The notes under the pieces were generated by a model, which had not been told where the DNA came from, made no database searches, and saw only the letters and a list, made by a program, of their open reading frames with translations. Positions 15,470 to 63,005 of a DNA stretch of 64,000 nt are shown piece after piece. This stretch comes from a virus, in IMG/VR virus record IMGVR_UViG_3300042923_000524, positions 73,948 through 137,947 of that record; one strand, given 5' to 3'. The first letter of the stretch is position 1. Each line of letters starts with the position of its first letter. Both the position numbers and the translations under genes were made by a program.

Positions 15470-15560
15470 GAGCTTGAAAAATAGCTCTTTTTCTTTTCTC
15501 AATCTTTCAACCAATTCTGTAATTTGAGGACATTTAAAATTTTAGAAATATATCATAATG

Positions 15561-15605
15561 AATATAAAATTATATATTGACATATAATTATAATGGGTTT
15601 ATAAT
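15561..15605 (+). promoter_or_regulatory. consensus sigma-A promoter with upstream AATATAAAA box (type example of at least 12 similar units)
   Basis: AATATAAAA at 15561, TTGACA 15577-15582, 17 bp spacer, TATAAT 15600-15605. Confidence 0.8.
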
Positions 15606-15624
15606 TAAAGAAAATACAAATTAA

Positions 15625-15891
15625 TTGGAGGTTTTAAACATGACTAAAAAAGAATTATATATGAATAGAATCAATCATGCAATAATTACAAAGTATGACA
15701 TTGAATTAGTTATTTTTACTGAAGGTCAAAGACATCCAGACTGTTATTACAAAGATATAGAAACTAATAGATGTTATGAAGAAACAGGAACAAAGAATTT
15801 AAAAAGTCAATTTGAGATTGTAAAAAGAAGAATCAAAAATGCTGATTTTGAAAATACAATGAAAACTTGTCAAATACCTGAAGCCGAATAA
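15625..15891 (+). CDS. hypothetical protein
   Basis: RBS. Confidence 0.65.
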   Translation: MEVLNMTKKELYMNRINHAIITKYDIELVIFTEGQRHPDCYYKDIETNRCYEETGTKNLKSQFEIVKRRIKNADFENTMKTCQIPEAE

Positions 15892-15909
15892 AAATAAAAG
15901 GAGAAAATA

Positions 15910-16113
15910 ATGGATTGGATTTTATCAATAGTATCTATGGTAATGCTTTGGATGATGGGCAATAAAAATAAGTATGCTCCATTTATAGGGATAATTGCAC
16001 AAGTGCTATGGATATATTATGCAATATCATTAAAACAATATGGATTATTAGTTGGAACTATTGGATATTTAGTTATACATATTAGAAATGCTGTAAAATG
16101 GCAAAAGAATTAA
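15910..16113 (+). CDS. small membrane protein (PnuC-like phage family)
   Basis: MDWILSIVSMVMLWMMGNKNKYAPFIGIIAQVLW...YGL...W. Confidence 0.55.
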   Translation: MDWILSIVSMVMLWMMGNKNKYAPFIGIIAQVLWIYYAISLKQYGLLVGTIGYLVIHIRNAVKWQKN

Positions 16114-16407
16114 TTTGACCATAAAATAACAATTTCAAAGACTATTATAAAGCCTTTTGGATGCCCTCCAGAGGCTTTAATTTTATCTATGAATAAACAT
16201 AATAGCATTATAGCAGTATTATATATTATAATATCTGGATGCCTTAAAAACGATTTAAAAGCCTTGAAATTGTAGTAAAGTTATATTTATTGAGATGGCA
16301 GCAACGTATATTTTAATAATTTTAAATTAAATAATGAATATAAAATTTAGTTATTGACTATAATAATATTGATATGATATAATTAAATTAATACATATTA
16401 AAAAGGA

Positions 16408-17094
16408 GTGATTACCATGACAAGTAAAGATATAAAAGAAATAGTAGAAGTATGGAAGGCTCAACCAATAGAAAGATTTAGAGATAATGTAGAAAGTTAT
16501 ACAAGAGCAATAAAAAGACATGAAAACGAGATACAAGAAATATTATTAAAAATGCAACAATTAGATGTTAATCATAAATATTATATTGATAAAATGAAGA
16601 ATATGAATAGTGACATTAAAACAGCATTAGGATTTTTAAAAGAAGACAAAGCACTTGTTGAAGCATCGCAACCAGAGCTTGAAAAAGCAGAAAATGAAAT
16701 AAAAATACTTGAAGAGTCAAAGAAACCTCAATTTGAAGTATTAAAAAACTTTGTAGAGCAATGGAAAACTGAAGCTATAAATTATTATTTAGAACTTCTT
16801 AAAAATGGCTATGATGGCAAAGACGATTATATAATAGACTTATTACAAAGAGGAGAAAAATATATAATAAATCTTTACACAATAGAAGCTAAAGCAAGGC
16901 TAGTAAATATGATAACATTGATAAAAGAAAAGACTGGCGAAGTAATATCTTGTAATTTATACGGAAGTGGAAACAATCAAAAGTTTGGTTTTGAGGGAAC
17001 AGTAACAGGAGAAAAGAAAACAGTAAGAGTCGAAGCAATTTTAGCAGGTGGATGGAATATTCAAAAACTACATGTAAGACTATTAATAAATTAA
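16408..17094 (+). CDS. hypothetical phage protein with coiled coil
   Basis: 228-aa ORF with promoter, RBS and terminator. Confidence 0.7.
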   Translation: MITMTSKDIKEIVEVWKAQPIERFRDNVESYTRAIKRHENEIQEILLKMQQLDVNHKYYIDKMKNMNSDIKTALGFLKEDKALVEASQPELEKAENEIKILEESKKPQFEVLKNFVEQWKTEAINYYLELLKNGYDGKDDYIIDLLQRGEKYIINLYTIEAKARLVNMITLIKEKTGEVISCNLYGSGNNQKFGFEGTVTGEKKTVRVEAILAGGWNIQKLHVRLLIN

Positions 17095-17368: not shown

Positions 17369-17491
17369 ATATGATTATAAAATAGGCTGAATAAAGCCTA
17401 TTTTTTTTATGTATTGACTTCCTATAAACTCATGTTACAATTAAAGAGAATACATAACACATATAAAATTAATAAAGGAGGAAACGAATTA

Positions 17492-18367
17492 TTGAATGTA
17501 TTATCATTATTTGATGGAGGCTCATGCGGTCAAGTAGCATTACAGAGGGCAAATATAAAAGTAGAAAAATATTATGCTAGTGAAATAAATCCAAATAGCG
17601 TAAAAGTAACACAAAAGAATTACCCTAATACAATACAGCTTGGAGATGTAACACAACTAAACAAAGAAAAATTATTAAATTTAGGTAAAATTGATTTATT
17701 AATTGGTGGTAGTCCCTGCGAAGATTTAACAATAACCGCAATTGATAGAAAAGATATTAACAAAGGTTTAGAAGGTAAAAAGTCAAAGTTGTTTTATAAT
17801 TATGTGGATGCTCTTAATATTATTAAACCTAAATACTTTTTACTTGAAAATGTTGCAAGTATGACAAAAGAAAATATAGATATAATATCTAGTGAATTAG
17901 GAGTAAAACCAATATTAATAAATAGTAATTTAGTATCGGCTCAGGATAGGGAAAGACTTTACTGGACTAATATTACAGGTATTGCACAGCCAAAAAATAA
18001 AGAAATTTTATTAAAACACGTCTTGCAGCGAGATGTAGAAGAAAAATTTTACTACAATAAACCCTTTGAATTTTATGGATTAGATAAAAAAGTATGTGCG
18101 AAATTGTTAGTAAATTCTCATGATTTAGTTAAAAGAGTTTATAATCCAGATTTTAAATGTGCAACATTAACAGCTGTACAAGGTGGATATCAAGAGAAAA
18201 AAGTTTATATAAATAGTAGAGTTAGAAAATTAACACCAATAGAATATGAAAGACTTCAGACTTTACCAGATAATTATACATATGGAGTTAGCAATACAGC
18301 ACGCTATAGTATTTGTGGAGATGGTTGGACAGTTGATATAATAGCACATATTTTTAAAAATATATAA
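17492..18367 (+). CDS. DNA cytosine-5 methyltransferase
   Basis: LSLFDGGSCG (I), GGSPC (IV), LENV (VI), QDRERLY (VIII); TTG start at 17492 behind AGGAGG (track start 17414). Confidence 0.9.
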   Translation: MNVLSLFDGGSCGQVALQRANIKVEKYYASEINPNSVKVTQKNYPNTIQLGDVTQLNKEKLLNLGKIDLLIGGSPCEDLTITAIDRKDINKGLEGKKSKLFYNYVDALNIIKPKYFLLENVASMTKENIDIISSELGVKPILINSNLVSAQDRERLYWTNITGIAQPKNKEILLKHVLQRDVEEKFYYNKPFEFYGLDKKVCAKLLVNSHDLVKRVYNPDFKCATLTAVQGGYQEKKVYINSRVRKLTPIEYERLQTLPDNYTYGVSNTARYSICGDGWTVDIIAHIFKNI

Positions 18368-18687: not shown

Positions 18688-19114
18688 TATTAAGGAGTTG
18701 TTATAATTGGCTATTATGACAGATAAAGAATTACAAAATATAGCAAGTGATTTATTTCGTAAATATTGGAATATGGATTTAACTATTTCTGTTTCGGTTA
18801 ATCCTAAAATGTATAAATGGTCTGCAAGATGTTACCCTATGACAGTTGGGAAACATTAATAAATAGAGGATATAAGAAAAGAATTTAGCAGTTTATTAAT
18901 TGCAGCCGAAAGGCTGTTTTTAATTTCACGACAAAACACTTCTTTCATGGTCATTACTGGAGCAGATTATTTTTAAAAATCATGTATCAACTTTAAACTA
19001 AAAGCATATAATAAATTAACCAAATACAAATATAAAACTTTTAAAATATTTGTTGACAGAAATTTCTAGCATATGTTATAATGAATTATCGAATAAATTA
19101 TAGAAGGTGAAATC

Positions 19115-19348: not shown

Positions 19349-19350
19349 AT

Positions 19351-19419
19351 CTCGACTATGCGAGTATAAACAGACTTTAAGCATAGAGCGTTAACAGGTT
19401 TAACAGCCTGTTAGGTAGT
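19351..19419 (+). ncRNA. pistol self-cleaving ribozyme
   Basis: P1 ctcg/cgag, pseudoknot ctatg/catag, UAUAAACAG linker, P2 act/agt, UUAAGC, GCG, P3 ttaacagg/cctgttag, GU cleavage dinucleotide. Confidence 0.85.
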
Positions 19420-19778
19420 AATAAATAATAAATTAATAGGAGTGATTTATCAATGCCAAGTAAAACAGTAAGAGAAACGGAATATAATAAAACAATCCAA
19501 TATAAAGACGGACAAATGACATATTGTATCAACTATAGAAAAGAATTTCATAAATCATTTATAAATGGTTTTAGATGGGTAGAATGTTAATTCAATAAAA
19601 TCCAAATTTGGTCATCATGTAAAAATTTAGGAGGTGCGTATAATGTGTAGAATCTGTGGAGCAGAAACAAAAGAAACTATTTGTAAAGAGTGTCAAAAAG
19701 AATTAATCAAAGAAAACTATAACAAAACTTTTATTAAAATATCAAAATAAAAATATAAAATTATAGGAGAGTGTAAAA

Positions 19779-19991: not shown

Positions 19992-20363
19992 AAATGAAAG
20001 ATTTATTTGAAAAATTAGAATATGCAAAAAAGGCGGTATTAAGAACATTAGAAAAAGAAAGTTGTTCAGTTGATTTTCATGGTTTATCATATTGGGCAAA
20101 TGAAGTAGAGCGTTTACGCAATGAAATTAAAAAGATATTATAATATTAAGAGAAGCCTGTAAAAAGGCTTTTTCTTTTATCTAATATCCAGACCAAATAG
20201 ATGTTTTATTGTCATATAATGTCGATAAGTTTTATAATAATTAATATAAAATTGAGCAAAATAATGTTGACAGATTAAAAACACGTATGTTATAATTAGT
20301 TATACCAATTAATTAGAAATTCAATAATAACAAATAACAAATAACAAATATAAAATATAAGGA

Positions 20364-21551: not shown

Positions 21552-21553
21552 CA

Positions 21554-21625
21554 ACAGGTCACAGCCTGTATAAATAGTGCTTTAAGCTGTGAGCGTGTCA
21601 AGGTATAACAGCCTTGACGATAGCA
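21554..21625 (+). ncRNA. pistol ribozyme (second copy, AU at cleavage junction)
   Basis: P1 acagg/cctgt, pseudoknot tcacag/ctgtga, AUAAAUAG, P2 tgct/agca, UUAAGC, GCG, P3 tgtcaagg/ccttgacg. Confidence 0.8.
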
Positions 21626-21961: not shown

Positions 21962-22454
21962 AAACACTATAACAGCCGAGGTATTTTAAACCATGAAGTT
22001 TTAAAAAGTTACTATAACAGTCGACACAAAATAGTTGACGAAGTTTTCTTATAACAGAAAGCACTTTTTACTTCATGGATTTTAACTATAACAGCAAGTT
22101 TAAAATGGTTGACCGACTTTTGTAAATAATATATAAAAGATTGGTATAAAAGTTACTAAGACTTGACACAATATAACTAAATACAAATATAAAATTTATT
22201 TTAAAAAAGCATTGACAAAACTTTTCTATGTATGGTAAAATAAGTATAACAGGTAAACGAAAAATAAATATATTGGAGGGTTTGAATATGGAATTAACTA
22301 AACAAGAAATACAATCAAGGATTGAGAAAATAAGCAAACTTAAAGAAACTGAACAAGATATTCAAAAATTAAAAATCATCAATCAAGCAGTAAAAGATTT
22401 AAGTAGTTTATTATAAAAAGCCAATCAAAGACGTATTCAGTTGAAATTTAAAAT

Positions 22455-22870: not shown

Positions 22871-23110
22871 AAACTGAAATAAATATTTAGGAGTGAAATA
22901 TAAATGGAAAAGAACATGATAGAAATTAATAAAACAACTCGTATATCAATTGACGATGATGGTATAATATCAATTCATCAATTAGATTGGAAAGGTAAAG
23001 ACTATACAACTATTCATCTTAGCAAAGAGGCATTAAAGCAAATTACAGAGATAGTTGAAAAGGTATAACAGTAAAATCCAGACAAAACAGTAGTTTTATC
23101 AAAATATAAA

Positions 23111-23296
23111 TTGAAAGGATGGAATAAAATGAATGATACAAAATTAGAAAATATGATATTAACAACTAAACTATGTTTAGTAGAGGCAGAAACAAAAAGC
23201 CAAGATTTTAAAGACGGTGCAATATATATGTCAAAAAGTATTTTTAGTTCGTTGGGTATACCAGATAATGTTATAGAAAAATTTATAAAAGCATAA
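23111..23296 (+). CDS. hypothetical protein
   Basis: RBS. Confidence 0.55.
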   Translation: MKGWNKMNDTKLENMILTTKLCLVEAETKSQDFKDGAIYMSKSIFSSLGIPDNVIEKFIKA

Positions 23297-23351
23297 CAGA
23301 CAACGAAAGATAGATTTGGTCAAAATAAATAGATGAAAGAAGGAAAGAAAA

Positions 23352-25096: not shown

Positions 25097-25141
25097 AATG
25101 ACAATAAAACAAGAATTTGGCTTGGAAGGGAGAAATAAAAA

Positions 25142-25408
25142 ATGAAACAAACTTTTGAAGTGATGATAAATGAAAAGAATGGTAAGGTTACTATTGAAAA
25201 TTTAGGAGAAACAAATTATGCTAATCAATTTATTTATAGGTTTGATAATAACGATAGATTTACAGGATTTTACTGTGACGAATCAAAAATACAATCTATG
25301 TTTACTAAAATAAAAGAAAGTGAAATTAAAAGTCGTGAAAAGCAAATAAAACAACTCCAAAAAGAAATTAAGATATTTGAAAAAGCTAAAATACCAACAA
25401 TTCAATGA
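25142..25408 (+). CDS. hypothetical protein
   Basis: RBS. Confidence 0.65.
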   Translation: MKQTFEVMINEKNGKVTIENLGETNYANQFIYRFDNNDRFTGFYCDESKIQSMFTKIKESEIKSREKQIKQLQKEIKIFEKAKIPTIQ

Positions 25409-25446
25409 AATAAGAGTTTCAACGAAATAACGAAAGGAGAAGACAA

Positions 25447-26535: not shown

Positions 26536-27321
26536 ATGCCATTAAGTGCTGAAGAAAAGAAAGTAAGAGCAGACAAACGTAAACAAGATAAATATAATAA
26601 AGAACATAAAATTATCAACGAAACTTTATATAAATGGTGTACTGAAGATGAACATTGGGTTATTTGTGATGAAAAACATTTTTATATAAATAAAAGTAAT
26701 ACCGTTGATAATTTTAGTAATAGATGTATAGAATGTGAAAAGAAACGTGCAATGCAATGGAAGATAAATAATAGACCAAGAGTAAGAAAATCAGCTAGAA
26801 AATATAATGCTAAACCCCATATCAAATTAAAAATGAGAGAAGCATCTAAAAAGCAAAGAGAAGAAGGATATCAAGTAAAATACCAACAAGAAAATAAAGA
26901 GCAAATAAACCAATATAGTAAAAATAGACAGCAAAAGAATCATAGAATTACCAAAGAAGAATGGGAAAATTGTAAACATTACTTTGCCAATAGATGTGCG
27001 TACTGTGGTTTAGGTATTGAAAACCATTTAGTTATGAAGAAAGGTAAAATGGAATACCATGATTTACATAAAGAACATGCTATACATGATGGTAAAGATA
27101 ATTTATCAAATTGTATTCCATCGTGTCGAAGTTGTAATGATAAAAAATGGAAGTTTACATTAAACCAATGGTATAATTTAAGTAATCCAATTTATACATA
27201 TGAAAGATACCACAAGATTTATCAATGGTTAAGATATGATTATAAAAAATATATACATAAAAAGAAACAAAAAGGTAAATATGTTAAAAAGAATATGGAA
27301 TATTGGGATAATAAAAAATAA
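26536..27321 (+). CDS. HNH endonuclease
   Basis: CAYC...LHKEH...DNLSNCIPSCRSCNDKK. Confidence 0.85.
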   Translation: MPLSAEEKKVRADKRKQDKYNKEHKIINETLYKWCTEDEHWVICDEKHFYINKSNTVDNFSNRCIECEKKRAMQWKINNRPRVRKSARKYNAKPHIKLKMREASKKQREEGYQVKYQQENKEQINQYSKNRQQKNHRITKEEWENCKHYFANRCAYCGLGIENHLVMKKGKMEYHDLHKEHAIHDGKDNLSNCIPSCRSCNDKKWKFTLNQWYNLSNPIYTYERYHKIYQWLRYDYKKYIHKKKQKGKYVKKNMEYWDNKK

Positions 27322-27412: not shown

Positions 27413-28288
27413 ATGAAATCTGAAAACAAATTACTCAACAATTTTCTTCTAGCTTTAAAATCAAAAGGAAGGTCACAGAACACAATAACATCATATGAGA
27501 TAGATAACATCCAGTTACTTAATTACATACGAGAGAAAAGGCATATAGAAGCATCTATAGATACATTTGATAAAGAGTTTTTTAATTCTGTAGGGTATCA
27601 GGATTTAGAATTCTATATGAATTATTTAACGCAAAAAAACAAAGCAGAATCATCCAGAGCAAGGAAAGTGTCAAGTATTAAAGAGTTTTTTAAATATATA
27701 ACAAAGATGAAAGTTATTACAATCAATCCTGCATTGGATTTAGAAGCTCCTTCAATACCAGAGAGAAATCCTAAATATAAAAACACAGAAGAATGCAAAA
27801 CAATGCTTCAGAACATAAAAAGCAGAAATAAAGAAAGAGATTTGGCAATCATAACATTATTTATCAATCTAGGTTTGCGTGTCTCTGAATTAGTTGGAAT
27901 TGATTTAGATGATATAAAAGAGAATAAAGTTAGAGTTATCAGAAAAGGTAATGAAGAAAAGAACATGAGATTAAATGAATATTGTATAGATGCAATCAAT
28001 AAGTATTTAGAAGTTAGAAAAACAACTGATGAAAAAGCATTATTTATTAGTGAACGTGGTACTAGAATTAGCGTTAAAGAAATTAGATATCTAACTTATA
28101 AATATGGTAATATTAATCCTCATGCCTTGAGACATAGTTGTTTTACAAACTTATTAAGTACAGGAAAGGTTAATATTCGTAAGATACAAGAGTTAGCAAA
28201 CCATAAAAATATTCAAACTACAGTTCGATATACACATATTACGGAAGATGAAATGCAAGAAACTGTTAATGCAAACCCATACTATTAA
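27413..28288 (+). CDS. XerC/D-like tyrosine recombinase, catalytically intact
   Basis: SAM-like N-domain (SRARKVSSIKEFFKY), GLRVSEL, RKGN, HALRHS, LANHK, TVRYTH. Confidence 0.92.
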   Translation: MKSENKLLNNFLLALKSKGRSQNTITSYEIDNIQLLNYIREKRHIEASIDTFDKEFFNSVGYQDLEFYMNYLTQKNKAESSRARKVSSIKEFFKYITKMKVITINPALDLEAPSIPERNPKYKNTEECKTMLQNIKSRNKERDLAIITLFINLGLRVSELVGIDLDDIKENKVRVIRKGNEEKNMRLNEYCIDAINKYLEVRKTTDEKALFISERGTRISVKEIRYLTYKYGNINPHALRHSCFTNLLSTGKVNIRKIQELANHKNIQTTVRYTHITEDEMQETVNANPYY

Positions 28289-28989: not shown

Positions 28990-29238
28990 ATGTTAAAATT
29001 AAAAGAATTAAAACAAACTTGTAGTTGTTGTCCTAGTCAATGGGAAGGAACAACTAAAGAAGGCAAGTATGTTTATATTAGATGTGATAATAATGAACTT
29101 GAAGTCGAAACAGCAAAGAACGAAGAAGATTGGTATAAAGGTAAATTTAAAGTGGTATTTGTTGATTATAACAGTGATTATGGTGATGTAATGGATACTA
29201 ATGAAATGTTGTCTCGTACAGGAATTCAACTCATATAG
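28990..29238 (+). CDS. hypothetical phage protein
   Basis: TCSCCPSQWEG...YVYIR; RBS. Confidence 0.65.
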   Translation: MLKLKELKQTCSCCPSQWEGTTKEGKYVYIRCDNNELEVETAKNEEDWYKGKFKVVFVDYNSDYGDVMDTNEMLSRTGIQLI

Positions 29239-29530
29239 TCTCATCCAATTTCTCATTTGGTTAGCATTTTGAAAGGAGATTAATATGTTCGATTTTATAG
29301 CATGGTTATTTTTTCATATTTGTAAAATAGTATTTTTACCAGTGTTTATGCTAATATTCTTTATAAAACATTTAGTATATGCACTAGGTAAAACTTTGGA
29401 AGATTGTAGTCATATATTATTGGCTAAGTTTCCAGAAAATAATTAAATACTAATATAAAATTTATATAAAAAATATGTTGACAGGTTTAGAAATATTTGA
29501 TAAGATTGGTTTAAGATATTAAATAATATT

Positions 29531-32248: not shown

Positions 32249-32347
32249 AGATGGTATAATATATTAGTATACAGGGTTTTATTTCCTGTATACTAATATT
32301 AAAACCTAGTAATTGCAACAGGTATAGAAGTTAAATGTTTCGATGAA

Positions 32348-32683
32348 ATGTCAATTCTGTCTAGAAAGGAGTTTTGTATGTTAGAATATGAATATTGGGA
32401 TGTTAAAAAAACAAATAAAACTAATGAAGGATTAATAACTGCTGTTGAGTTAAGAGATAAAGATTATAATGCATTACAACTTGATTTTAAATGGGACGGT
32501 TGTATTAATCTTTGGAAGTATTATAATGGCTATACTCCAGATGATGATTCTGAAGAAGCTAGAGAAAATATGGATTACATTCATATTTGTGATTTAGAAG
32601 AGTTTATAAATCAATTACAAGAAGTCTTAGTTATTGCAAAAGATATATTAGGTGAAGAAAAATATGAACGTGATTTTAGATAA
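32348..32683 (+). CDS. hypothetical protein
   Basis: likely start MLEYEY. Confidence 0.65.
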   Translation: MSILSRKEFCMLEYEYWDVKKTNKTNEGLITAVELRDKDYNALQLDFKWDGCINLWKYYNGYTPDDDSEEARENMDYIHICDLEEFINQLQEVLVIAKDILGEEKYERDFR

Positions 32684-33020: not shown

Positions 33021-33689
33021 GTGGTAATTGAAATGACAACATGCATTCAAAACATTAATAGTCACACTACATACGATAAACCAATAAACACACTAATCAA
33101 CGCAGCACAAAAATTATTAGAGGTACGGAAAGGTGATTTGATATTTGTAGACTTTGACCAACTAATAAAAAGTGGTAGAGACCATAGTATACAATCGAAA
33201 CCTAGACCAGCGGTAGTTTTAAGCAATAACGTTGGAAACAAGTTTTCACCTACTATTTGGGTGGCAACATTAACTTCTAATCTTAACAAAAATAAACTAC
33301 CAACACATGTAAAAGTATCTGAAGAAACAGGACTTAGATTTGATTCGTTGGTTTTAGTAGAACAGGTATTCACAATTGACAAAAAACTTATATTATCAAA
33401 AGTGGGGAAATGTTCAGCACATATAATGGAGCAAATTGACACAGCAGTTAAAATTCAAGCAGGTACAATTGATTTAGAGTATATAGAAGATACAGTTAAT
33501 TGGATTAATAAAGTAGAGTGCGAAGCTCGAATAAATGGGTTTGACCCAGAGGATGCAAGATTACACACTAGACTAGTTAAGGAATTGCAATCTTATTGTA
33601 ATCAATATGGATATGATTATACTAAGGTATTAAAAGAAAAAACATTTATAAAAGTCTCCGTGGACAATAGAAAACAAAATGCAATGTAA
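33021..33689 (+). CDS. MazF/PemK (NdoA-like) endoribonuclease toxin with N- and C-terminal extensions
   Basis: KGDLIFVDF, SKPRPAVVLSNNVGNKFSPT, TLTS, DSLVLVEQVFTIDK; catalytic R and T present. Confidence 0.88.
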   Translation: MVIEMTTCIQNINSHTTYDKPINTLINAAQKLLEVRKGDLIFVDFDQLIKSGRDHSIQSKPRPAVVLSNNVGNKFSPTIWVATLTSNLNKNKLPTHVKVSEETGLRFDSLVLVEQVFTIDKKLILSKVGKCSAHIMEQIDTAVKIQAGTIDLEYIEDTVNWINKVECEARINGFDPEDARLHTRLVKELQSYCNQYGYDYTKVLKEKTFIKVSVDNRKQNAM

Positions 33690-33698
33690 AATATAAAA

Positions 33699-34358: not shown

Positions 34359-34380
34359 TATAAAACAAGGAGGAAAAAGA

Positions 34381-34527: not shown

Positions 34528-34539
34528 TTAATAAAACAA

Positions 34540-34558
34540 GAGGGGTGAAATGCCCCTC
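34540..34558 (+). terminator. hairpin after propeptide
   Basis: gaggggtgaaatgcccctc. Confidence 0.6.
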
Positions 34559-34595
34559 AAACAAAAAACTACAATAAAAATGAGGTGACAACATT

Positions 34596-34946: not shown

Positions 34947-35078
34947 ATAGATTAACATAAATAATGAATATAAATATTTTTCATGATTCACACATACATA
35001 TCAGTATAATTACTTGACACCAAGGATATAATTATATTAAGATATAAATAAGAATGAATATAAAAGGATGTGTGAGTT

Positions 35079-45037: not shown

Positions 45038-45598
45038 TTGATTGATAAAATAGCAACATGGATAGGCAAAATACTTTCTGATTATACAGGATTAAATGAA
45101 GTTAAGCAGATAGAATTGATATATTTTCTGAAGAGAATAATTAAAAATTTGATATTCTATATAATCACATTTAATATAGCAATTTTACTAAATATATTTA
45201 ACCCTGTATTAATACTATTACTAAGTTATCATTGTGTAAGATTGAGGTTTGGAGGAATACATTTAAAGAATCAGACATTATGTTTAATAATAAGTATAAT
45301 TGCTCCTTTGGGATTAGGATACATAGCATCTAATTATAAATTCAATTTACTTTTTATGGTAATATTATATGCCGTAATGATTTTATACGCAAATTACATA
45401 GACGTGATAGATAATATTAATAGACCCCTGACAGTTGATAAGAAGCTTAAATTTAAAAAACAAGGCTTAATAACTATGACAATATTATTTGTACTAAATA
45501 TTATAATATATATACTTGATTTCGTATTAATAAGCAATAGTATCCTAATGGGAGTCTTACTAGGAGTGATATTACTTATAAGGTTTCCAATAAAATAA
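45038..45598 (+). CDS. agrB: AgrB peptide-processing membrane endopeptidase
   Basis: VRLRFGGIHLKNQTLC (His/Cys) and NINRPL motifs. Confidence 0.88.
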   Translation: MIDKIATWIGKILSDYTGLNEVKQIELIYFLKRIIKNLIFYIITFNIAILLNIFNPVLILLLSYHCVRLRFGGIHLKNQTLCLIISIIAPLGLGYIASNYKFNLLFMVILYAVMILYANYIDVIDNINRPLTVDKKLKFKKQGLITMTILFVLNIIIYILDFVLISNSILMGVLLGVILLIRFPIK

Positions 45599-47849: not shown

Positions 47850-48096
47850 AGGAGGAATAAATATGGAAAGGTTTTTAATTAAGTTAACAGATTTATTAAA
47901 TAATGATTTTACAAAATTACCTTGTAGTGATAGTTGTAAAGATTGTAAATTAAATATAAAACTTGATGATGAAAACTATAATGGTTATACAATTTGTGAT
48001 ATACTTACTGATTTACAAGATGTATTAAGTAAAATATAACTGACCACAAAAGAACAATTTGGTCGGGAAATAATATAAAAATAAGGAGATAATTTA

Positions 48097-48645
48097 ATGC
48101 AAAAATATTTTTTAGCAACAAAAGATAGTGAATTTGCAAAAGAAATGACTAAATACATAGAAATGTATGAACAACAAAGGGTGTTTGTAAAACAATTTTT
48201 TAAAGATAATGAAATAGAAGGAACTCAATATATTGTATCTGGAGATGGTTGGGTTAATAAACCTTTTGAGGAATGGAATAAGAATAAAATTACACTTAAT
48301 ATCAACCCCACAGAAAAAGATAATCAAAAATTCGGAAGTATGTTGACTAAACCTAAACATCATGGATTGTGTGCATTTAAAAAAGGTTCAAAAATTGCAA
48401 AAGAATTTTCAGATTTATGCTTCAAAGAAAAGATTGTGGTGAATCTATATCAGCCTAGTTTAAGAGATTATTTTCAATCAATTGGATACTCAGCATATAC
48501 ATCACATTTACTTGATAATGAAGACAATAGTTTTTATTTAAAAGTAGAGAGTAAGAATCTAAAAGAAGATGATATACCTGAATATATGACAGAAATAAAA
48601 GCAAGTGATTTTTATAAAATATTAGAAGAAAGAAAAGAAATATAA
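48097..48645 (+). CDS. hypothetical protein
   Basis: 182-aa ORF, RBS. Confidence 0.7.
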   Translation: MQKYFLATKDSEFAKEMTKYIEMYEQQRVFVKQFFKDNEIEGTQYIVSGDGWVNKPFEEWNKNKITLNINPTEKDNQKFGSMLTKPKHHGLCAFKKGSKIAKEFSDLCFKEKIVVNLYQPSLRDYFQSIGYSAYTSHLLDNEDNSFYLKVESKNLKEDDIPEYMTEIKASDFYKILEERKEI

Positions 48646-48930
48646 GACAATAAAACGATGATTTGGTTGAAAGAGAGGTTTGGGTATGTATGTAATATAT
48701 AAAGTTTCCGTAGATAAAACTTATTATATTGACGATATTGATACAAAGATTGAAGTTAAACTCATTGAAAGTTATGATAATCAATCTGAAGCTGCAAGAT
48801 TGTGTAGCATATTAAGTAAAGAAAATAAGGATGAAAGAGTAAAATATAAATATGGATATTTAAAAGATAAAAATTAAAACTACTCAAAATGCTTATTTAG
48901 AGGTAACTTAAAAATAGAAAGGAGAATTAA

Positions 48931-50160: not shown

Positions 50161-50233
50161 TGGGGAGCAATCCCCTGATACATAGTTTCAACATAATAGG
50201 TATTTTATAGGAATTTTAAAAAAGGAGATAAAT

Positions 50234-51071
50234 ATGGAAAGAAAAATTAAACTATCAAAGGGTGAAATAGAATCATTTTTTATAAAAGGTCAAAGAAATC
50301 CTTGTAATTGTGGCTCAAATTGTTTTCATAAGGAGAATGATGAATTAATAACACTTGGAGTTTGTAATGCTTGCGGTGAAGATATATATGAATATGAAGA
50401 GCGAGAAGAATTTGACGAGTGGAAATATAAAAAGTAAACTGTCTTCAAAAGGCAGATTTGGAGGAAAAATATGAATGGTTTTAATTTAGTAAAAAAGATA
50501 ATAGATGAATTAAAAGAAGAGGATATGCCAAGATTCATGAATGAGTTAGGATGCCCGAATTATTTCAGGTTAGAACAAGTTTCTGATGATGAATGCAATA
50601 ATTCACCTTGTATAGAATGTTGGAAACAGGCATTAAACAAAGAGTATGAAGTTTAAATAAAAGACAGGTTTTAAAGACAAATTGAAAGGAGGATTTTTTA
50701 TGAATAATACTATCACAATTACACAAAAGGAATACAATGAATTACTAGAATCACAACGGTCTTTAGAAGCATTACAATGTGCAGGTGTAGACAATTGGTC
50801 AGGATATTGCGAGGCACAAGAGATTTTTAATAGTGAAGATTAAATCACATCATAACAATTAATTGGAGGTAATAAAAAGATGGAAAATAAAGAAATAGCA
50901 AAAAGAATAAGTGAAATGGTATGGAAAAATTATGAAGATAATGACATATTTGCAGTACAATTATTTGTAGAAAAAATTTGTTTACCTGAAGGAGTTCAAA
51001 GTTATACTCAAGAAGACCTAGAGGAATATATATTAAAAATAGCAAATAATAATTTTATTACAGAAATTTAA
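50234..51071 (+). other. cluster of small hypothetical ORFs (50234, 50471, about 50700, 50880)
   Basis: ORF track, RBSs. Confidence 0.55.
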
Positions 51072-52102: not shown

Positions 52103-54137
52103 ATGAAAGAATGGTGTTTTGAGCATCCAATATTAACTTTCTTTATAATCTGTTTAATATTATTAGAGTTAGATTGTTATATTACATATTTAAACAATAG
52201 ACTAAAGTTAAAACTTTTTATTTTAGAGAATAAGAAAGAAGAAAATAAAAATAAGTACACTATATATAGTGGTGATGGTAAAATAAAACACAATATATAG
52301 TAACAAAATGACCATAAAATGAGTATTTGGATGTAAGTTGGAGAGGAATAGTAAATGATAAAGAATTGTAGTAACTGTGGAAATAAAGGTGCGTTGTGTT
52401 GCTCTTATTGTGGTGACTATGAAGGTTGGAAACCAATAAAAGAGGAAAATACCAAAGTAAGAAAAGATGGATTGACCGAACAAGAAGGAAAAGTAATGGA
52501 TTCACTAGTTGATGCGTGGAATGAATATGTTAAATTAGAAAAACAACACCCAACGGATATTGATGAGTTTTGTGATGGAATACATAGATGTCAACATGCT
52601 TTGACTATAAGAATTTTAAGAAGAGATTATTCTGAAGGTTATCCTATAAAATAATAAATATAAAAAGGAGTTTAGTAAATGAAAAAATTAGTTATAAATT
52701 CAGGCAAGGCTTATGTGATGGAAAATAAAGAGGATTATAATTTAACTGATAGTTATGAACATGCAAAAGATTTTAGATGGTGTTGGTTATGGTTTTCTAA
52801 GAAAACATTTTTAAAAGGTATTAATAAAAGATTTGGTAGTGGATGGGAATTTAAATGGATGTAGTCAGAATAAGGATTCTGAGGACATATAATAAGGAGG
52901 ATATATGAAAACTACAATAATGCAATGTAACTGTGATAATTGTAACGAAATAATGACTGAATTTGAATATGAGCAAGCTATTAAAATTACAATATCAGCA
53001 GATTTACCTAATCCACAAGGTAAATGTGGTCAGTTTGGTGGTATAACGATGAAATTATGTAAAAAGTGTTCTGAAGAATTAGGGATAATCAATTCGGAAG
53101 AATACCATAACTATACGTATTCTCATAGTAGATTTATTAGCAAAATTAAAGAATGTAAAACAAAGATTTTAAAATTGTGCTTTAAGAAATAAGGAGATTA
53201 CAATGAGTAAATATGTATATGAAGACCCTATTAAATTAGGATATATTCAATTTAAATTAACCAAGAAACAGCACAATAGTCTATTCAAATATAGACAAAT
53301 TAAATGGACAGATAAATACGAGTATTATTATAATGAACATGAAATAATAATACATAAATTCTATAATTGGAAAGCTGTTTTATTACAAACAATTTTCTTT
53401 CCAGTAGAAATATTGATGAATGGAATAGTAAATGCAAAAGAAATTTATAAAGAAATCTTGGAATTATATAATCAAAAGGAATCTGGAAGTTTTTCTGGTG
53501 ATGATGTGTCTAGTGGAACAGATAAATATAATGAGATTATGGATATTATAAAATAATAATAAATATGATAAGAAAGGAGAAAAATATGAAAGTTGCAAAT
53601 TTATGTGATTATTGCAAACATGAAGTGCCTGAATGTGAAAACTCAAAAGTAGTGTTTGGCGTAGATTGTAAGGATATTTTAGCCTATTATAATCAAGGTA
53701 TAGTTGATAAAAAATATCTTGATGCTACTGTTGCATGTGATGGATTTTCTGAAAAAGAATAGTTATACATATTAATAATAGCAAGTTTCAACAGAAGCAC
53801 GATTTGATTAGGAAAGGAGATATAAAAGTTGTTTAATTTAAAAGAAGAAGAAAAATACATATTTGATGCTATAGTAGGAGCAAGAACAATACAAGAGTTT
53901 CTATGGGGTGAATATAATAATCAATGGGATTTAGAAGAATGGAAACGTATGTTTAAAAAGAGAATTGTTAAAATAGATGACATTGATACTGATAATCCCC
54001 ATGCAAAGATTGAGTTAAAGAAGAGAGTATTACAAAATGCTTGTTTATGTATTGCTTTACTAAATAATATTGACAAAGAAAATATTAATGAGGAATGTAA
54101 TATACCATCTAATTTACCTGATTATAAGACTGAATAA
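52103..54137 (+). other. cluster of small hypothetical ORFs (52103, 52355, 52679, 52905, 53203, 53565, 53829)
   Basis: ORF track, RBSs, flanked by 23-bp elements. Confidence 0.6.
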
Positions 54138-54292
54138 TTACGACCAAAGAGAATTTCTGTTGAAACATTAATAATGATTAATATAAAATTATATATTGAC
54201 ACACATGCTATCTGTGGTATAATTAAAAGTAAGTAGAAACATTATATCACAGATATTCACATACATAATCAAATATATAGGAGGTTAAAGAC

Positions 54293-56296: not shown

Positions 56297-56634
56297 TTCC
56301 CTTCTATCCTTTTAAATACATAATGAATATAAAAACGGAGGAACACATAAGTAAAGAAAAGTTTAAGATATTTATAAGAGGACTACAGGTTTGCTTTCTT
56401 ATAGTGATTGTGAATTTGTTTATGTTTTATATATCTAAAGACCATATAGCACCAGAGGTCTGTATTTGGTTTGCAGGATTTATAAGTTTTGGATTATTTT
56501 ATCAGTTACATAAGATAATATTAAAATTAATATAAATTGTAATACATTTGTAATATGAGAACACGAATAAATGGAAGATAAACAGCGAAAACGAGACTTT
56601 AAAATTACAAAAAGACCATGAAATTCATATTTTA

Positions 56635-57939
56635 TTGAAAGTTATAAAGGAGGTCGATAGTATCAATCCAGTATTTAAAGAATACATACAATTTTTAAAA
56701 GACAATGGAGTAGATTATCCACTTGTAGAAGGTTTCTATTGGTTAGAAAATCAGATTATTAAGGCATATGATAAACAAGGCAGTTTACAAAAGATTATAC
56801 GTCTAAATATAGATGATAAACTAAATATTACATATAAAGAATATAAAAATAACAAATATGATTTAGAATCTTGGCAAGAAACAGTTAAAAGAAAAACATC
56901 TGAAATAGACCAAAGAGAATCTGACAGCCTCAACCTTCTATCTCAATATAAAGAAACAGATAGATTAATTGTTGATACAAACTCAACAGGTAAAGATAGT
57001 ATGGTTAAAACTCATCTAGCTAAAAAAGCAGGATTAAAGTTTAATACATATTTCAATTGTACTACTATGGATGTAGCAGATAGCAACATAATGGCTAAAA
57101 ACAATAAATATAAGTTTACCTATCCTGATAAGAAATACAGAAGTTTCTATAAATGGAGAGAAAATGAAAATATTATACCTTCAAGACTTAATAGATGTTG
57201 TTGCAAGTATTTTAAAGAAGAACCAACCATAAACAGTTTTGATAAAAAAGATAAATTATTATTCTTATTTGGTATGAGAAATAGTGAAAGCACTAATAGG
57301 TCTGGATATACTGATATTTGGATAAATGAAAAGTGGGGTAAGAGGGATTGGATAGGTATATTACCTATTAGAGAATGGACAGATGAAGAAATTTGGTTAT
57401 ACATATTTAGTGAAGGTATTGAAATTAATGATAAATATAAAAAAGGTTACAATCGTGTAGGCTGTGGAATAGTTTGCCCTAATTATAATAAATCAACTTG
57501 GGTACTAGATAAGTATTGGTATCCTTCAATGCATGCAAGATGGCAGAATATTTTAAGAGAAGATTTCTTAACTAATTACAAGTGGATTGCAGTTCATTGC
57601 ACATTAGATGAATATTTACAAGGAGCATGGGCAGGTGGATTACTAAGACCAGAACCTAATGAAGAAGTAATTAAAGAGTTTGCGGAATATAAATGTATTA
57701 CTGAAGATGTGGCAGGTAAGTATTTTGATAAGTTTTGTGTGAATGGCTGTAAGAGTAGAAGAGGTAATTTGCTAAAGATTAAAGATAAAGATGTTTTAGC
57801 TATGAATCTTAAAATGATTAGTAGAAACACAGAACAATTCATGTGTAAGAAGTGCTTGATGACACATTTAGACATTAATCAAGAGCAATGGGATAAATAT
57901 ATAGAAGAATTTAAACAACAAGGTTGTAGTTTATTTTAG
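56635..57939 (+). CDS. phosphoadenosine phosphosulfate reductase-family (PP-loop) protein
   Basis: STGKDS, RCCCKYFKE, GMRNSES, RVGCGIVCP, C-terminal Cys cluster. Confidence 0.85.
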   Translation: MKVIKEVDSINPVFKEYIQFLKDNGVDYPLVEGFYWLENQIIKAYDKQGSLQKIIRLNIDDKLNITYKEYKNNKYDLESWQETVKRKTSEIDQRESDSLNLLSQYKETDRLIVDTNSTGKDSMVKTHLAKKAGLKFNTYFNCTTMDVADSNIMAKNNKYKFTYPDKKYRSFYKWRENENIIPSRLNRCCCKYFKEEPTINSFDKKDKLLFLFGMRNSESTNRSGYTDIWINEKWGKRDWIGILPIREWTDEEIWLYIFSEGIEINDKYKKGYNRVGCGIVCPNYNKSTWVLDKYWYPSMHARWQNILREDFLTNYKWIAVHCTLDEYLQGAWAGGLLRPEPNEEVIKEFAEYKCITEDVAGKYFDKFCVNGCKSRRGNLLKIKDKDVLAMNLKMISRNTEQFMCKKCLMTHLDINQEQWDKYIEEFKQQGCSLF

Positions 57940-58329: not shown

Positions 58330-59920
58330 ATAAACAAGATAAAAGAATGGTTAAAAATAAAATTAAGAAAGTTTCTTGGAATAGATACACTTGAAAATAA
58401 TTTTATACTCCATGAAAAGTCGAATGATTTAAAAAATATTAAAATACATGAACATATTAGCTCAACACATAGTGAATTAAGAAGAAATATTTCACATTTT
58501 CAAGAATCAGTTAATGTTTTACATAATACTGTGGAAAATGTAGTCTATATAGGAACGGATGTAGTTCAACATCCTAATAATTATAACCACAGTTGGGCAG
58601 TAATTTGTATTGAGGGCAATATGAACATAGTAAAGTTTGTAGACTTAGATAGAAAAAACGCTAGAGAAATTTTAGATTTTATAAAGCATTTTGAGGCTGG
58701 TAGACATTGTGTAGATTCACCATATAAGCAAATGTTTTATGATGGATTATTTAAATTTTAACCAAAGTTGCATTTGGAGGACAAATAAAAAGGAGGAGTT
58801 AATTTGGATTTTGAAGATGAACGTGCTTTAAAAAGACTCAAAGAAAACAAAGAACAACATGAATTTGATTTATTGAGAGCTAGGAAGGCGAATGAAGCAT
58901 TACAAATACTAGAAGAAATAAACAAATTATTAAAAAATAGAGGATATTACATAAAAGATGAATATTTTGGTGGAAATTATTTAATAAAAATCGACGGTGA
59001 TACTGAAGAAGAAATTGCTTTAATAAGATTCAATAAAAATATAAAATTGAATGATATTTCAGTATTGCCTATTTTATCAAGTGATTAAATGTCCATATAA
59101 CTTACATTTGGTCAAAACATAGAAAGGAATTGTGTCATGATTAACGATTTGGAACAAAGATATAGGCAATTTAAGATTGATTATAAAACAATGTGTGCTT
59201 ATGATGATATGAATTGTTATAACGAAATAGTTAAAGCAATAGAAAATATAAAAATGAGTTTAGAAAACAAATATAAACAAACCCACTGTGATGATGATAA
59301 TACAAATAAAGTTCTCAGTAAGGCAATAGATTATTTAGATAGTGTTATATGTTGTTTTGAAGATTTGAAGTTTTATGATGGTGATGGAAATAGATTTTAA
59401 TTATTAAGAAAGGAGATATAAATGAGTTACAGAAAAGATTTAGATAGAGCCACGGTAACTGCTGAAGAAAGCGATGTAGATAAGACAGATTTTGTTACAT
59501 ATAGTGATGCCAAAGATATACTAGATAACATAGAATCTAAAGTCGGTAAAATTAGGGATATGTTAGGGAATATTAAGGGATTAACTGAAATTGATGAGAT
59601 ATATGTTTTAGTAGATAAGTTACATAGTGATTTATATTAAGTTTAGTCCAAACATAAATTCTATTGGGAGTTAGGAGGATAAAATAGTGAAAAATACGAT
59701 AGATATAGGTCAAGAATTATACTATCAAGGTTTAGGTTATGGAATCAAAGACAAATGTTGGAAGATAGATATAATCAATGACATACGATATGTTCATACA
59801 AACACAGGGGTTATAAGAAAAGAAATTGATGTTATAAATAATACCTGTGATTTATTTTCAAGTAAAGAAGAAATAAACAAAAAATTGGCTAGAAGCTACA
59901 TGGCTAAATTAATTGAATAA
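58330..59920 (+). other. cluster of small hypothetical ORFs (58330/58531, 58804, 59137, 59422, 59687)
   Basis: ORF track; first ORF extends to an ATA start at 58330. Confidence 0.55.
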
Positions 59921-59982: not shown

Positions 59983-61491
59983 TTGATTAAATATAATTTA
60001 GTAAACTTTTGCGAGTTTGACAAATATGCTGCTCAAAGTTTTTGTGCAATACACAATGTAGATGAAAATAAAAATCTAGGTGATATTACAAAAGTAAATG
60101 AGAAGGAAATAGCTGACTTTAATATGATGGTGGGAGGAAGCCCTTGTCAAGATTTTAGTGTAGCCGGTAAACAAGAAGGTGCTAAGTGGACTTGTAAAGA
60201 TTGCGGTCACGAATATAATCCATTAGAAGCACATTATACAAAGAGAGATAAATGTCCTAAATGTGAGTTAACAAATATTGAAAAAACGAGGTCTTCTCTT
60301 TTGGCTGAATGGCTAAGAATACTCAGAGAAAAGAAACCCAACTTAGCAATATATGAGAATGTAAAAAATATTGTTGGTAAGCAATTTAAAGCTACTTTTG
60401 ATTTATTTGAAACTGAATTGAAAGAATATGGATACAATACTTATTGGAAAGTATTAAATGCCAAAGACTATGGAATTCCTCAAAATAGAGAACGTGTTTA
60501 TCTTATAATAATAAAAAAAGAATTAGACAATGGGTTATTTCAATTTCCTAAAGCGTTTAACAATGGATTAAGATTAATAGATTTCTTAGAGAGTGTTGTG
60601 GATGAGAGATATTACATAAGTCAAGACAAAACTGATAAATTAATAGAACAGTTAAAAGATAAAAATAGTTTAATGCTAGATATGTGTCAAGCAAAAAGAG
60701 AAGGTAAGCCAAGAGAATATACAGAAATTTCACCTACATTAAGCGCTAGAGATTATAAAGAACCCAGATTAATAAATAGTGGAGTAATTCAAGTGGGAAA
60801 TATAGTTAACACAGGTAATTGGGATAATCCACAAAGAGGTAGAATTTATTCATCAGATGGTTGTAGTCCTGCTTTAAATTGTTGTGGAGGTGGAGGATTA
60901 GAACCCAAAATATTACAGACTGTATGTGAACAAAGAACCGATGAAGGATTAAGATTTTTCAAAGGTGATATTATTGGAACACTGAGAACAATTGATTCTT
61001 GTGGTGATAAGAGAGTCATAGAAAGTCCAAGACCTGAACTTGTTGGTGGTATTGGTGAAATAAATTTTGGAAAGCAATATAGACAAGGTAATAGAGTTTA
61101 TTCGGCTGATAAAACAGCAATGTGTTTACTTTCTCAACCAGTAGGAAATGCAGGAGGTAATAGTTATCTTTATAATATTGATTATAGAATTAGAAAACTT
61201 ATACCTAAAGAATGTTTTAGATTGATGGGGTTTTCAGATTCAGATTTTGAAGCTGTAAAAAATATTGGGATATCTGATTCTCAATGTTACAAACAAGCAG
61301 GTAATTCTATAGTAGTGGATGTTCTTTATTACATATTACTTGAATTATATAAAACTATGCCATACTTACTGGAAGATATAAAGTTATCGTCATTCTTTAG
61401 TGGTATTGGTGCTTTTGAGAAAGCAATTTTTAGATTAATGGCTAAAATAAATAATAATCATGAAGAGTTAGAAATTGTAATCAATTTGTAA
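59983..61491 (+). CDS. circularly permuted C5 DNA methyltransferase with multiple TRD-like repeats
   Basis: starts at motif II (CEFDKYA); GGSPCQ, YENV, QNRERVY, YKQAGNS; motif I (SFFSGIGAFE) at the C-terminus. Confidence 0.88.
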   Translation: MIKYNLVNFCEFDKYAAQSFCAIHNVDENKNLGDITKVNEKEIADFNMMVGGSPCQDFSVAGKQEGAKWTCKDCGHEYNPLEAHYTKRDKCPKCELTNIEKTRSSLLAEWLRILREKKPNLAIYENVKNIVGKQFKATFDLFETELKEYGYNTYWKVLNAKDYGIPQNRERVYLIIIKKELDNGLFQFPKAFNNGLRLIDFLESVVDERYYISQDKTDKLIEQLKDKNSLMLDMCQAKREGKPREYTEISPTLSARDYKEPRLINSGVIQVGNIVNTGNWDNPQRGRIYSSDGCSPALNCCGGGGLEPKILQTVCEQRTDEGLRFFKGDIIGTLRTIDSCGDKRVIESPRPELVGGIGEINFGKQYRQGNRVYSADKTAMCLLSQPVGNAGGNSYLYNIDYRIRKLIPKECFRLMGFSDSDFEAVKNIGISDSQCYKQAGNSIVVDVLYYILLELYKTMPYLLEDIKLSSFFSGIGAFEKAIFRLMAKINNNHEELEIVINL

Positions 61492-62057
61492 TGTGAAATA
61501 CATAGAAAACGAGAGATAAACAGAGAATGAGAGAGTTTAAAATTCAAAAATCCCAATGAAATGGAGATTTTAAAGAAAGTGAGGAAATTAAAATGATAAT
61601 TTATAATAAAGAAAAGACGAGAGCATCCGTAATAAATGATGTTGCATATATGTTTGCAAGTCAGGATATATATGGACATGAGTTATGGATTAATAATCAA
61701 ATATTTGAAAGATATAATTCAAAGATGGAGTTAAGACAGGTAGTTGAACAAGTCATTAATGCTATGTTAAATAAGCAAGAAAGTTTTGAATTAAATTAAC
61801 CAATAACAAATATAAAACTAATCGCTTGACAACTAGAAAATCCGTGTTACAATTAAATAGTAAGGTAAATAATATAAAATTTTGAAAGGAGAATAATTAT
61901 GAAAAGTATAGTAATAAAAGTATCTATTGTAATAATAGCTTTGGTGATATCATTATATGCTGATAGTTTTTCAATTACATCGTTTGTAGTTGGAGCTTTA
62001 GCAGGTGTTGGTGTAAGTCTTGTAGATAATTATATAAAATAAATAGGAGATACATAA

Positions 62058-62360
62058 ATGAGTAAAGAATATATTATCAATGAATATGTAAGAGATTTTA
62101 GTGACCTGATTGATGTAATACAGAAGATAGAAAGAAAATATAATGAATTATATGAGCAGGTTAATGACCAAGAAAAGATTAATGAACTAAATGAAGAAAT
62201 AGATGAACTAGAAGATGAGATATCTGAATTAAAAGATACTAGGGATAAACAAAATCAAGAAATAGTAGATTTAAGAGATGAGTTGTCAAGACTTGAAAGA
62301 CTATACGATAAAGCACTTGGAGAAATAGAGACATTAAAAAGTGATATGTCAACAGAATAA
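62058..62360 (+). CDS. coiled-coil hypothetical protein
   Basis: heptad-rich acidic sequence; RBS. Confidence 0.7.
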   Translation: MSKEYIINEYVRDFSDLIDVIQKIERKYNELYEQVNDQEKINELNEEIDELEDEISELKDTRDKQNQEIVDLRDELSRLERLYDKALGEIETLKSDMSTE

Positions 62361-62444
62361 TGACCAAAGTAGACTTTTATCGAAAGATTTATAAATACTA
62401 ATATAAAATTAATAAGACTAAAAAAACATAAGGGGGAACAAACC

Positions 62445-62735
62445 ATAAATACAGTAGCAAACCATCTAAATACAATTAAAGACCTTGTAGAATACATATT
62501 AGAAAAGCATCCAGAGACAAGAGCCAATGATACAAAATTATATCTGAAGTGCTGTGAACATCTAGGAGCAGATACATTATATGATTTAGAGACAATGGAT
62601 TTATCAATTATAAGTGTACATAAAATGCGACAGAAGATACAAAACAAAGAGGGTAAGTTTAAAGCTAGTTTGGATGTTCAGGTGAGTAGGCATAAGAGGA
62701 ATAGTGAAGTTAGGGATTATATGATTAATAATTAA
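62445..62735 (+). CDS. hypothetical phage protein, ATA start (not in ORF track)
   Basis: 96-codon open frame behind AGGGGG; LEKHPETRANDTKLY. Confidence 0.6.
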   Translation: MNTVANHLNTIKDLVEYILEKHPETRANDTKLYLKCCEHLGADTLYDLETMDLSIISVHKMRQKIQNKEGKFKASLDVQVSRHKRNSEVRDYMINN

Positions 62736-62745
62736 GGAGAAAAAG

Positions 62746-62961
62746 ATGGAATTAGGAATAATTAAAGTTGATTGTTATAATGATAGTCAAATATTACTAA
62801 CAGGTACAACAAGAGAAAATTATAAGGAACTTGTTGAAATATGGATAAATTATAAAAGAGGTCATCTACACGATGAGATTCAAGAAATAGAAAACGAAAG
62901 TGGTTCAATAGCATTAGACTTTAGTGCAGTTATAATGATTGTATTTGAATTAGAGGTTTAG
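62746..62961 (+). CDS. hypothetical protein
   Basis: RBS. Confidence 0.6.
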   Translation: MELGIIKVDCYNDSQILLTGTTRENYKELVEIWINYKRGHLHDEIQEIENESGSIALDFSAVIMIVFELEV

Positions 62962-63005
62962 ACCGAATTGAAGTTTTGAGGACATTTGAATGAAAGGAGA
63001 TAAAT

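Follow-up and report, generated by a model that had tools for sequence, protein, structure and literature searches.

Dyad-symmetric 32-bp sites with individual six-base centres in an SPbeta-like phage genome: candidate crossover points for gene exchange between related phages

The final 64 kb of the 137,947-bp IMG/VR record IMGVR_UViG_3300042923_000524 contains a large set of dyad-symmetric 32-bp sites located at gene boundaries. The phage is referred to here as G000 and this whole 64,000-nt stretch as the window, and positions are those of the window unless the genome is specified. Each site consists of two inverted 13-bp arms that face each other across a 6-bp centre. The arms do not fold, each centre differs from all others in the genome, centres are conserved in a related genome, and palindromes with a similar inner core coincide with breaks in homology between SPbeta-like phages of Bacillus. 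The sites are best explained, at a probability of roughly 0.5, as addressed crossover points for gene exchange between related phages, possibly via an intact Xer-like tyrosine recombinase that is encoded among them.

The record has a GC content of 27%, and its termini share a 127-bp assembly overlap, so the map is circular. Judged from gene content, the phage is SPbeta-like, because the window includes a gene for a MrpR/YopR-type recombinase-fold repressor adjoining one for a DndB-like (YopQ-like) protein, and also encodes an actin-like protein, an FtsK-family protein, TnpB, an NAD-dependent ligase and two C5 methylases. The rest of the genome encodes a large serine recombinase resembling SprA and a tyrosine recombinase resembling YomM. 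A Megablast search against deposited phages found no close relative.

Geometry, number and placement of the sites

A sequence-only reading of the window had listed 23 copies of a 23-bp quasi-palindrome, and all 23 were recovered at the same coordinates. Re-anchoring on the invariant AA/TT defined the unit as a dyad-symmetric 32-bp site made up of a 13-bp arm, a 6-bp centre and an inverted 13-bp arm, of which the 23-mer is the core. Twenty-one of the 23 copies enter the strict site list. The exceptions, which are weaker or off-geometry, are the copy listed at 15509 (15502-15535), which has a terminator on one side and a promoter on the other, and the copy listed at 25100 (25097-25128), which has a good left arm and a poor right arm. 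Read inwards, the arm consensus is aaTKWCNWYMRAA, where the inner part WYMRAA covers the variants ATAAAA, ATGAAA and ATAGAA, and a GAC-like triplet may take either of two triplet positions within the arm. Information is distributed across arm positions 3-13, as would be expected for a clamp-type protein.

A 17-mer pattern allowing up to 1 mismatch gave 12 matches where 1.4 were expected, and the 23-mer with up to 3 mismatches gave 14 in the genome and none with a reversed control. Using a symmetric half-site matrix, 64-65 sites were found in the genome and about 1 in shuffled sequence (64 vs 1.2), or 49 and 0, respectively, at a stricter cut. The genome total is therefore at least 64, with 38 strict sites in the window. 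When each arm was required to score at least 6 bits, 50 inverted half-site pairs were found at a spacer of 6 and only 0-1 at any of the remaining spacers between 0 and 14, and the count in a shuffled genome was 0-2. Most everted and direct arrangements gave 0-3 pairs, with direct pairs reaching 10 at spacer 4. Of 65 sites, 63 have a centre of exactly 6 bp. The counting of exact dyads was dropped as a discovery method as it missed even the positive control, and a search of IMG/VR with the exact 23-mer returned a single match, which was put down to chance.

The two inverted 13-bp arms and the rigid 6-bp centre bear out the resemblance to a tyrosine-recombinase site that the sequence-only reading had suggested. 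However, the 3-base asymmetry it described between the arms is an artefact of a 10+5+8 window that lay 3 bases off the dyad, and the arms score alike (9.2 and 9.6 bits). The division of the copies into forward and reverse classes arose from the same off-dyad window, and the sites are without orientation. Nor is the array confined to 15509-62983, as it runs over the record ends to genome position 11.9-21.8 kb.

As had been proposed, the copies lie downstream of a stop codon and ahead of the next ribosome-binding site. The centres are mostly located 6-16 nt past the stop codon and 18-46 nt ahead of the start codon, and the TAA-rich left flank of the sites is the upstream stop codon. A site is present in 38 of 70 same-strand junctions of 30-79 nt and in none of 35 junctions shorter than 15 nt. 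No promoter lies within 200 nt of about 50 of the 65 sites, which are therefore inside operons, and only 1-2 sites overlap a -35 box, as at 20185-20216 where the box is overlapped by the right arm. A reading of the sites as promoters was rejected for this general lack of a nearby promoter and because the arms do not include a -10/-35 pair. The elements at operon starts follow one another as terminator or stop, palindrome, box-like repeat (described below), -35 and -10, and the best-scoring site (54136-54167) is followed by a box-like repeat and a sigma-A promoter. The same symmetric site is also present in the minus-strand gene block (88-119, 21.4 bits). No site was found in the lysogeny module (33021-37384), or in the stretch from 2929 to 15500 that includes the actin-like and FtsK-like genes. 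Host-factor boxes for CodY, ComK, Spo0A and CtsR, the ARG box and the B. subtilis dif site were compared by eye and rejected on register mismatch.

Further 13-6-13 sites, given without strand, are at 18924-18955, 19588-19619, 22417-22448, 23075-23106, 23296-23327, 25398-25429, 32336-32367, 41199-41230, 42280-42311, 43023-43054, 43231-43262, 43388-43419, 48643-48674, 48877-48908, 50438-50469, 50650-50681, 52307-52338, 52858-52889, 53784-53815, 56611-56642, 58754-58785, 59088-59119, 59640-59671, 61549-61580, 62356-62387, 62955-62986 and 63359-63390. Weak examples are at 29237-29268, 42461-42492 and 50184-50215, and the remaining sites are located where they are discussed.

Six-base centres and breaks in homology

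All 63 strict centres are unique in the genome, and the finding of 0 identical pairs does not conflict with a chance expectation of 1.5. Within the genome the centre is almost without consensus, with only its two outer positions biased, to T and A. The most similar pair of sites agrees at 36 of 52 bases and none are alike beyond the consensus, indicating that the sites are not copies produced by duplication or transposition. A miniature inverted-repeat transposable element, or a mobile repeat like the repetitive extragenic palindromic elements, was rejected on the basis of the unique centres and the low identity of this best pair.

The nearest relative reached, G003, is a 130-kb IMG/VR contig that has 52 proteins in common with G000 and about 10-15 sites that follow the same consensus. 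Of the G000 centres, six are found again in G003, where 0.84 would be expected, and all 6 are syntenic and colinear. Sites in the window that have a centre in common with G003 include those at 16114-16145, 40614-40645, 40991-41022 and 48039-48070, and a weaker site at 343-374 retains its centre at the orthologous G003 junction. At the shared-centre sites only 5-12 of the 13 arm positions are identical between the two phages, and none of the genes flanking the six centres has a homologue in G003. The site at 48039-48070 shares its centre and right arm with G003 but has a different left arm, and likewise the site at 88-119 retains its centre (5/6 identical) and one arm but not the other, which is the pattern expected for a crossover at the border of arm and centre. 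On these alignments, the centre is the best-conserved part of the site between genomes despite the near absence of a consensus within the genome, and centres that match between genomes but not within them fit exchange between genomes, not inside one. The array is absent from the relatives found through the ligase (about 30 contigs, 64-75% identity).

Breaks in homology were compared with palindrome positions in 41-kb loci from each of the Bacillus phages Goe14, SPR, Goe11 and SPbetaL1. The palindrome ATRAAA-N6-TTTYAT, with no more than 1 mismatch, occurs 14-21 times per locus, and decoys with spacers of 4, 5, 7 and 8 occur 2-9 times. The G000 sites resemble these SPbeta-family palindromes in having a like inner core, a 6-bp centre, an intergenic location and shared centres that are colinear. 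In the four loci, 29 of 208 homology-block ends (13.9%) are 0-3 nt from a palindrome, compared with 3.2% for random intergenic positions and 0-2 ends for the decoys. Homology breaks at 55 junctions with a palindrome and is continuous at 21, whereas for junctions without a palindrome the numbers are 97 and 218 (odds ratio 5.9). Shared centres are colinear in 6 of 6 phage pairs, and 12 slots that are bounded by identical centres contain unrelated DNA of differing lengths, for example 2780 nt in one phage and 906 nt in another with 0% homology. At the base level, homology begins or ends at the outer edge of the palindrome in several joints that were inspected.

The comparative evidence favours a role in exchange, so that the shuffling of accessory genes envisaged by the sequence-only reading survives in this form, but excision of integron-like cassettes within one genome is not supported. 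As proposed here, the sites would be recognized as double-stranded DNA in the manner of tyrosine-recombinase core sites, with two independent 13-bp arms facing each other across exactly 6 bp, and related phages would retain the centres in order while the arms drift and the adjoining genes are replaced. In a cell shared by related phages, or by a phage and the prophage already resident there, the recombinase would pair sites that have matching centres, and strand exchange at the arm/centre borders would swap the genome segment beyond the junction. The requirement for matching centres would keep the gene order, and the uniqueness of each centre would preclude deletions or inversions inside one genome. 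We infer that such a crossover would be site-specific rather than driven by short homology.

Several points weigh against this reading. Breakpoints mapping to the motif, as anticipated from the sequence, were found in the Bacillus loci but not between G000 and G003, where homology-block ends are not enriched at sites (3 vs 4.4 expected with an intergenic null) and the junction table is in the right direction but not significant (6/0 vs 17/7, p = 0.29). The Bacillus junction statistics pool phage pairs that are not independent. Several G000 sites lie in intergenic DNA that has a homologous counterpart in G003, yet there the G003 site is absent or degenerate, indicating that sites arise or decay in place through point changes, like binding sites. 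Any binding site conserved at a gene boundary would likewise appear as an island where homology ends, and short-homology recombination could use 18-32 identical bases as well. Published SPbeta x phi3T hybrids were described as joined 'at homologous regions' with palindromes unmentioned. YopP, the SPbeta counterpart of the Xer-like recombinase, is very divergent.

Candidate proteins and competing explanations

The Xer-like recombinase gene (27413-28288, + strand) had been reported to lie within the array and to be intact, and this was confirmed. In an alignment with XerA and XerD, all of the conserved catalytic motifs (R, K, HxxR, H and Y) are visible. In the PDB it best matches XerA and XerD (1e-23), whereas IntI4 reaches 2.5e-6 across 45 residues. 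Orthologues that are 71-83% identical exist, the one at 83% on a 165-kb contig and the one at 71% on a 125-kb contig, and the G003 orthologue has 53% identity. As the SprA-like serine recombinase is also encoded, no task in integration is evident for the Xer-like protein. It becomes a tentative candidate for the enzyme acting on the sites through their geometry, its conserved catalytic motifs, the lack of another evident job and its presence in G003. The phyletic distribution failed to separate it from the MrpR-like protein, as G003 has both and the other genomes compared (G001, G002 and G004-G008) have close orthologues of neither. The YomM-family recombinase was rejected as the site binder because it is absent from G003, although G003 has sites.

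An HNH endonuclease gene (26536-27321, +) is located immediately upstream of the recombinase gene, and a box-like repeat precedes the Shine-Dalgarno (SD) sequence of the latter. The window also includes genes for an FtsK/SpoIIIE-family protein (4417-5805, +) and an actin-like (ALP/ParM-type) protein (2929-3858, +). Bacterial FtsK activates XerD, and the presence of FtsK-like and Xer-like proteins in one phage is noteworthy in that light.

The main alternative, which is possible but less likely, is that the palindromes serve purely for the docking of a DNA-binding protein in pairs, which would act inside operons as a regulatory or architectural element such as a roadblock, insulator or silencer, and that their link with mosaic joints is a by-product of conservation. 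Dyad-symmetric double-stranded DNA with independent arms and rigid spacing would suit such a protein, as would the location of most sites inside operons (about 50 of 65), their absence from the lysogeny module and from 2929-15500, and the creation or removal of sites in place by point changes. There are precedents in the more than 30 dispersed palindromes of Cluster O mycobacteriophages, for which no role is known (PMC4351075), and in stoperators (PMC9283540). The 17-bp Cluster O palindromes are also dyad-symmetric, intergenic and mostly off promoters, with an unknown binder, but they are near-perfect repeats with a 3-bp centre and reportedly are explicitly not at the ends of indels or rearrangements (PMC4351075), whereas the SPbeta palindromes are and those of G000 may be. 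Docking also gives no reason for conservation of the centre, yet across genomes the centre is better kept than the arms (6 vs 0.84).

The phage has a second intergenic repeat, which is directional. Its core, AATATAAAAT, is present in 58 exact copies compared with 9 in shuffles, and the repeat (consensus AAtaAYaAATATAAAATT) is found in 45 of 147 intergenic regions, almost always along the direction of transcription. Copies are found ahead of a -35 box at 15558, 16334, 19026, 20240, 22183, 37423, 46450, 54177 and 61806, and ahead of an SD sequence at 20344, 23848, 27371, 31828, 49672 and 51417, with more copies elsewhere in the genome. These are the same two placements as those of the SPbeta repeated element (SPBRE), and an 8-base block and an A-tract are in common with the phi3T box. 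The SPbeta repressor MrpR acts as a monomer on the asymmetric SPBRE, a 15-bp motif, and binds this repeated element at about 10 places (PMC10516654). SroF of phi3T is the same repressor, and its monomer wraps an asymmetric 26-bp A-tract box (bioRxiv 10.1101/2025.11.27.690993). The SPBRE recovered from the Goe14 sequence is directional, unlike the palindrome, and is ahead of a -35 box or SD sequence. Given its resemblance to the SPBRE/SroF box in both sequence and placement, the AATATAAAAT-core repeat, and not the palindrome, is probably the operator of the MrpR-like repressor. With a copy number well above the roughly 10 sites of SPbeta, this repeat would be stoperator-like.

It had also been suggested that the palindromes themselves are the operators of the MrpR/SroF (YopR)-like recombinase-fold repressor (36419-37384; Pfam MrpR_N_CB and MrpR_C_cat; PDB 8a0a and 9rd5), in which case they would form a stoperator-like array. 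This is very unlikely. The gene is present in the phage, the SPbeta repressor does occupy a repeated element, as noted above, and G003, which has sites, also has the closest MrpR-like protein found (37-40% identity). However, the MrpR/SroF monomer reads an asymmetric A-tract box while the palindrome is symmetric, the Goe14 SPBRE is unlike the palindrome, and G000 has the separate directional repeat that resembles the phi3T box and the SPBRE placement. The stoperator class was likewise rejected for the palindromes, which have no orientation and coincide with a -35 box in just 1-2 cases. Cluster A stoperators (PMC9283540) and the SPBRE/SroF box (PMC10516654; bioRxiv 10.1101/2025.11.27.690993) are similar to the palindromes in having many copies across temperate-phage intergenic DNA, but they are asymmetric, oriented and monomer-bound, which in G000 fits the AATATAAAAT-core repeat, not the palindrome.

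The sequence-only reading had favoured an integron-like cassette array. Such an array, which would have folded attC-type sites, an IntI-type integrase and cassettes that are excised as circles, is extremely unlikely. G000 is like an integron in that its array consists of small genes, co-oriented and mostly without promoters, that each have an imperfect palindrome after them, and in having a tyrosine recombinase nearby. However, attC is a folded single strand with extrahelical bases, and the G000 arms cannot fold. Arms within a site are complementary at 162 of 390 positions, compared with 170 +/- 8.6 in chimeras where the left arm of one site was joined to the right arm of another. G.U pairs (32) and A.C pairs (33) between arms are about equal in number, with no G.U bias, and the predicted minimum free energy is -2.4 kcal/mol on either strand and -2.8 for the chimeras. 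The lack of covariation between the arms and the trivial folding energy exclude RNA stems as well as an attC-like folded-strand mechanism, and the remaining reading is a double-stranded site for two copies of a protein, one per arm. Moreover, the sites are 32 bp rather than 57-141 bp long and have no GTTRRRY-type border, the recombinase matches XerA and XerD far better than IntI4, and no attI or Pc was noticed beside its gene, although neither was searched for systematically. As the 63 centres all differ, circles would not be expected to be excised within one genome.

In an Rfam search of the window, only two pistol ribozymes reached the gathering score, and neither is at a site. They are at gene junctions (19350-19420 and 21554-21625, both +) and match RF02679 with 64 and 60 bits (gathering score 34.5). 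A role for the sites in RNA, where the 5' leader of every gene would carry one as a stem for processing or stability or as a translational operator, has next to no likelihood, for although they are directly upstream of the SD sequence and the two ribozymes indicate that phage RNA processing exists at other junctions, the suggestion is refuted by the missing covariation, G.U pairs not above A.C, an energy as weak on both strands as in the chimeras, the lack of an Rfam family matching any site, and the recurrence of the symmetric site in the minus-strand block.

Other genes, known systems and implications

A proteasome-subunit (HslV-like) protein is encoded at 375-962 (-) and has 80% identity in G003, with sites downstream of the gene in both phages. 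The TnpB gene (39177-40490, +) predicts Cas12f1-like TNB and OrfB_IS605 domains. The best-looking palindrome (40614-40645) is about 125 nt past its stop codon, and the stretch between them is conserved as DNA in G003. A 13-6-13 site (37579-37610) is also found downstream of the MrpR-like gene. An AgrB-family protein is encoded at 45038-45598 (+; Pfam 4.8e-21). Genes for two C5 cytosine methylases (17414-18367 and 59983-61491), the DndB-like protein (35079-36389) and a PAPS-reductase-domain protein (56635-57939) suggest, from their predicted products, DNA modification.

Literature searches found no paper describing these palindromes. The pdif sites of Acinetobacter plasmids are XerC/XerD-type sites of 11-6-11 form similar to chromosomal dif, on which the host XerC/XerD are assumed to act. 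Similarities between pdif/dif modules and the G000 sites are the many Xer-type sites with a 6-bp centre and the bracketing of small gene modules found in varied contexts, but in G000 the arms are 13 bp and not dif-like, the centres are unique and ordered, and an Xer-like protein is encoded by the phage itself. Heterospecific lox/FRT sites, such as the spacer variants of Cre-loxP, are engineered sites in which the centre measures 8 bp, and only those with identical centres recombine productively. They share the 13-bp arm design, and the identical-centre rule is the principle by which an address would be read. To our knowledge, there is no natural genome-wide grid of such sites. The promoter early stem-loop (PeSL) cassettes of T4-type phages, which consist of a promoter and a stem-loop and act through homology, have been proposed to mediate modular shuffling. 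They too are conserved short intergenic elements bordering small early genes, but the G000 sites have neither promoter nor stem and have unique centres.

Joints in phage mosaics are usually ascribed to illegitimate or short-homology events that are rare and on which selection then acts. A recombinase-type grid with matched centres would instead be a dedicated mechanism of modular exchange. This can be tested directly in SPbeta/phi3T, a genetically tractable system, and dozens of natural, mutually orthogonal recombination sites could serve as a tool. More tentatively, SPbeta-like phages across the Firmicutes may have a built-in grid for site-specific exchange, made up of a phage Xer-type recombinase, dozens of sites and 6-bp overlaps that serve as addresses. 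If this is true, the uncultivated low-GC phage G000 would be an elaborate case, having 13-bp arms, at least 64 sites and an intact enzyme of its own, and co-infecting relatives would swap accessory genes slot by slot with the gene order unscrambled. A grid with matched centres would explain why, at a fixed gene order, SPbeta-like phages show fast turnover of their accessory arms, where defence and counter-defence genes are abundant.

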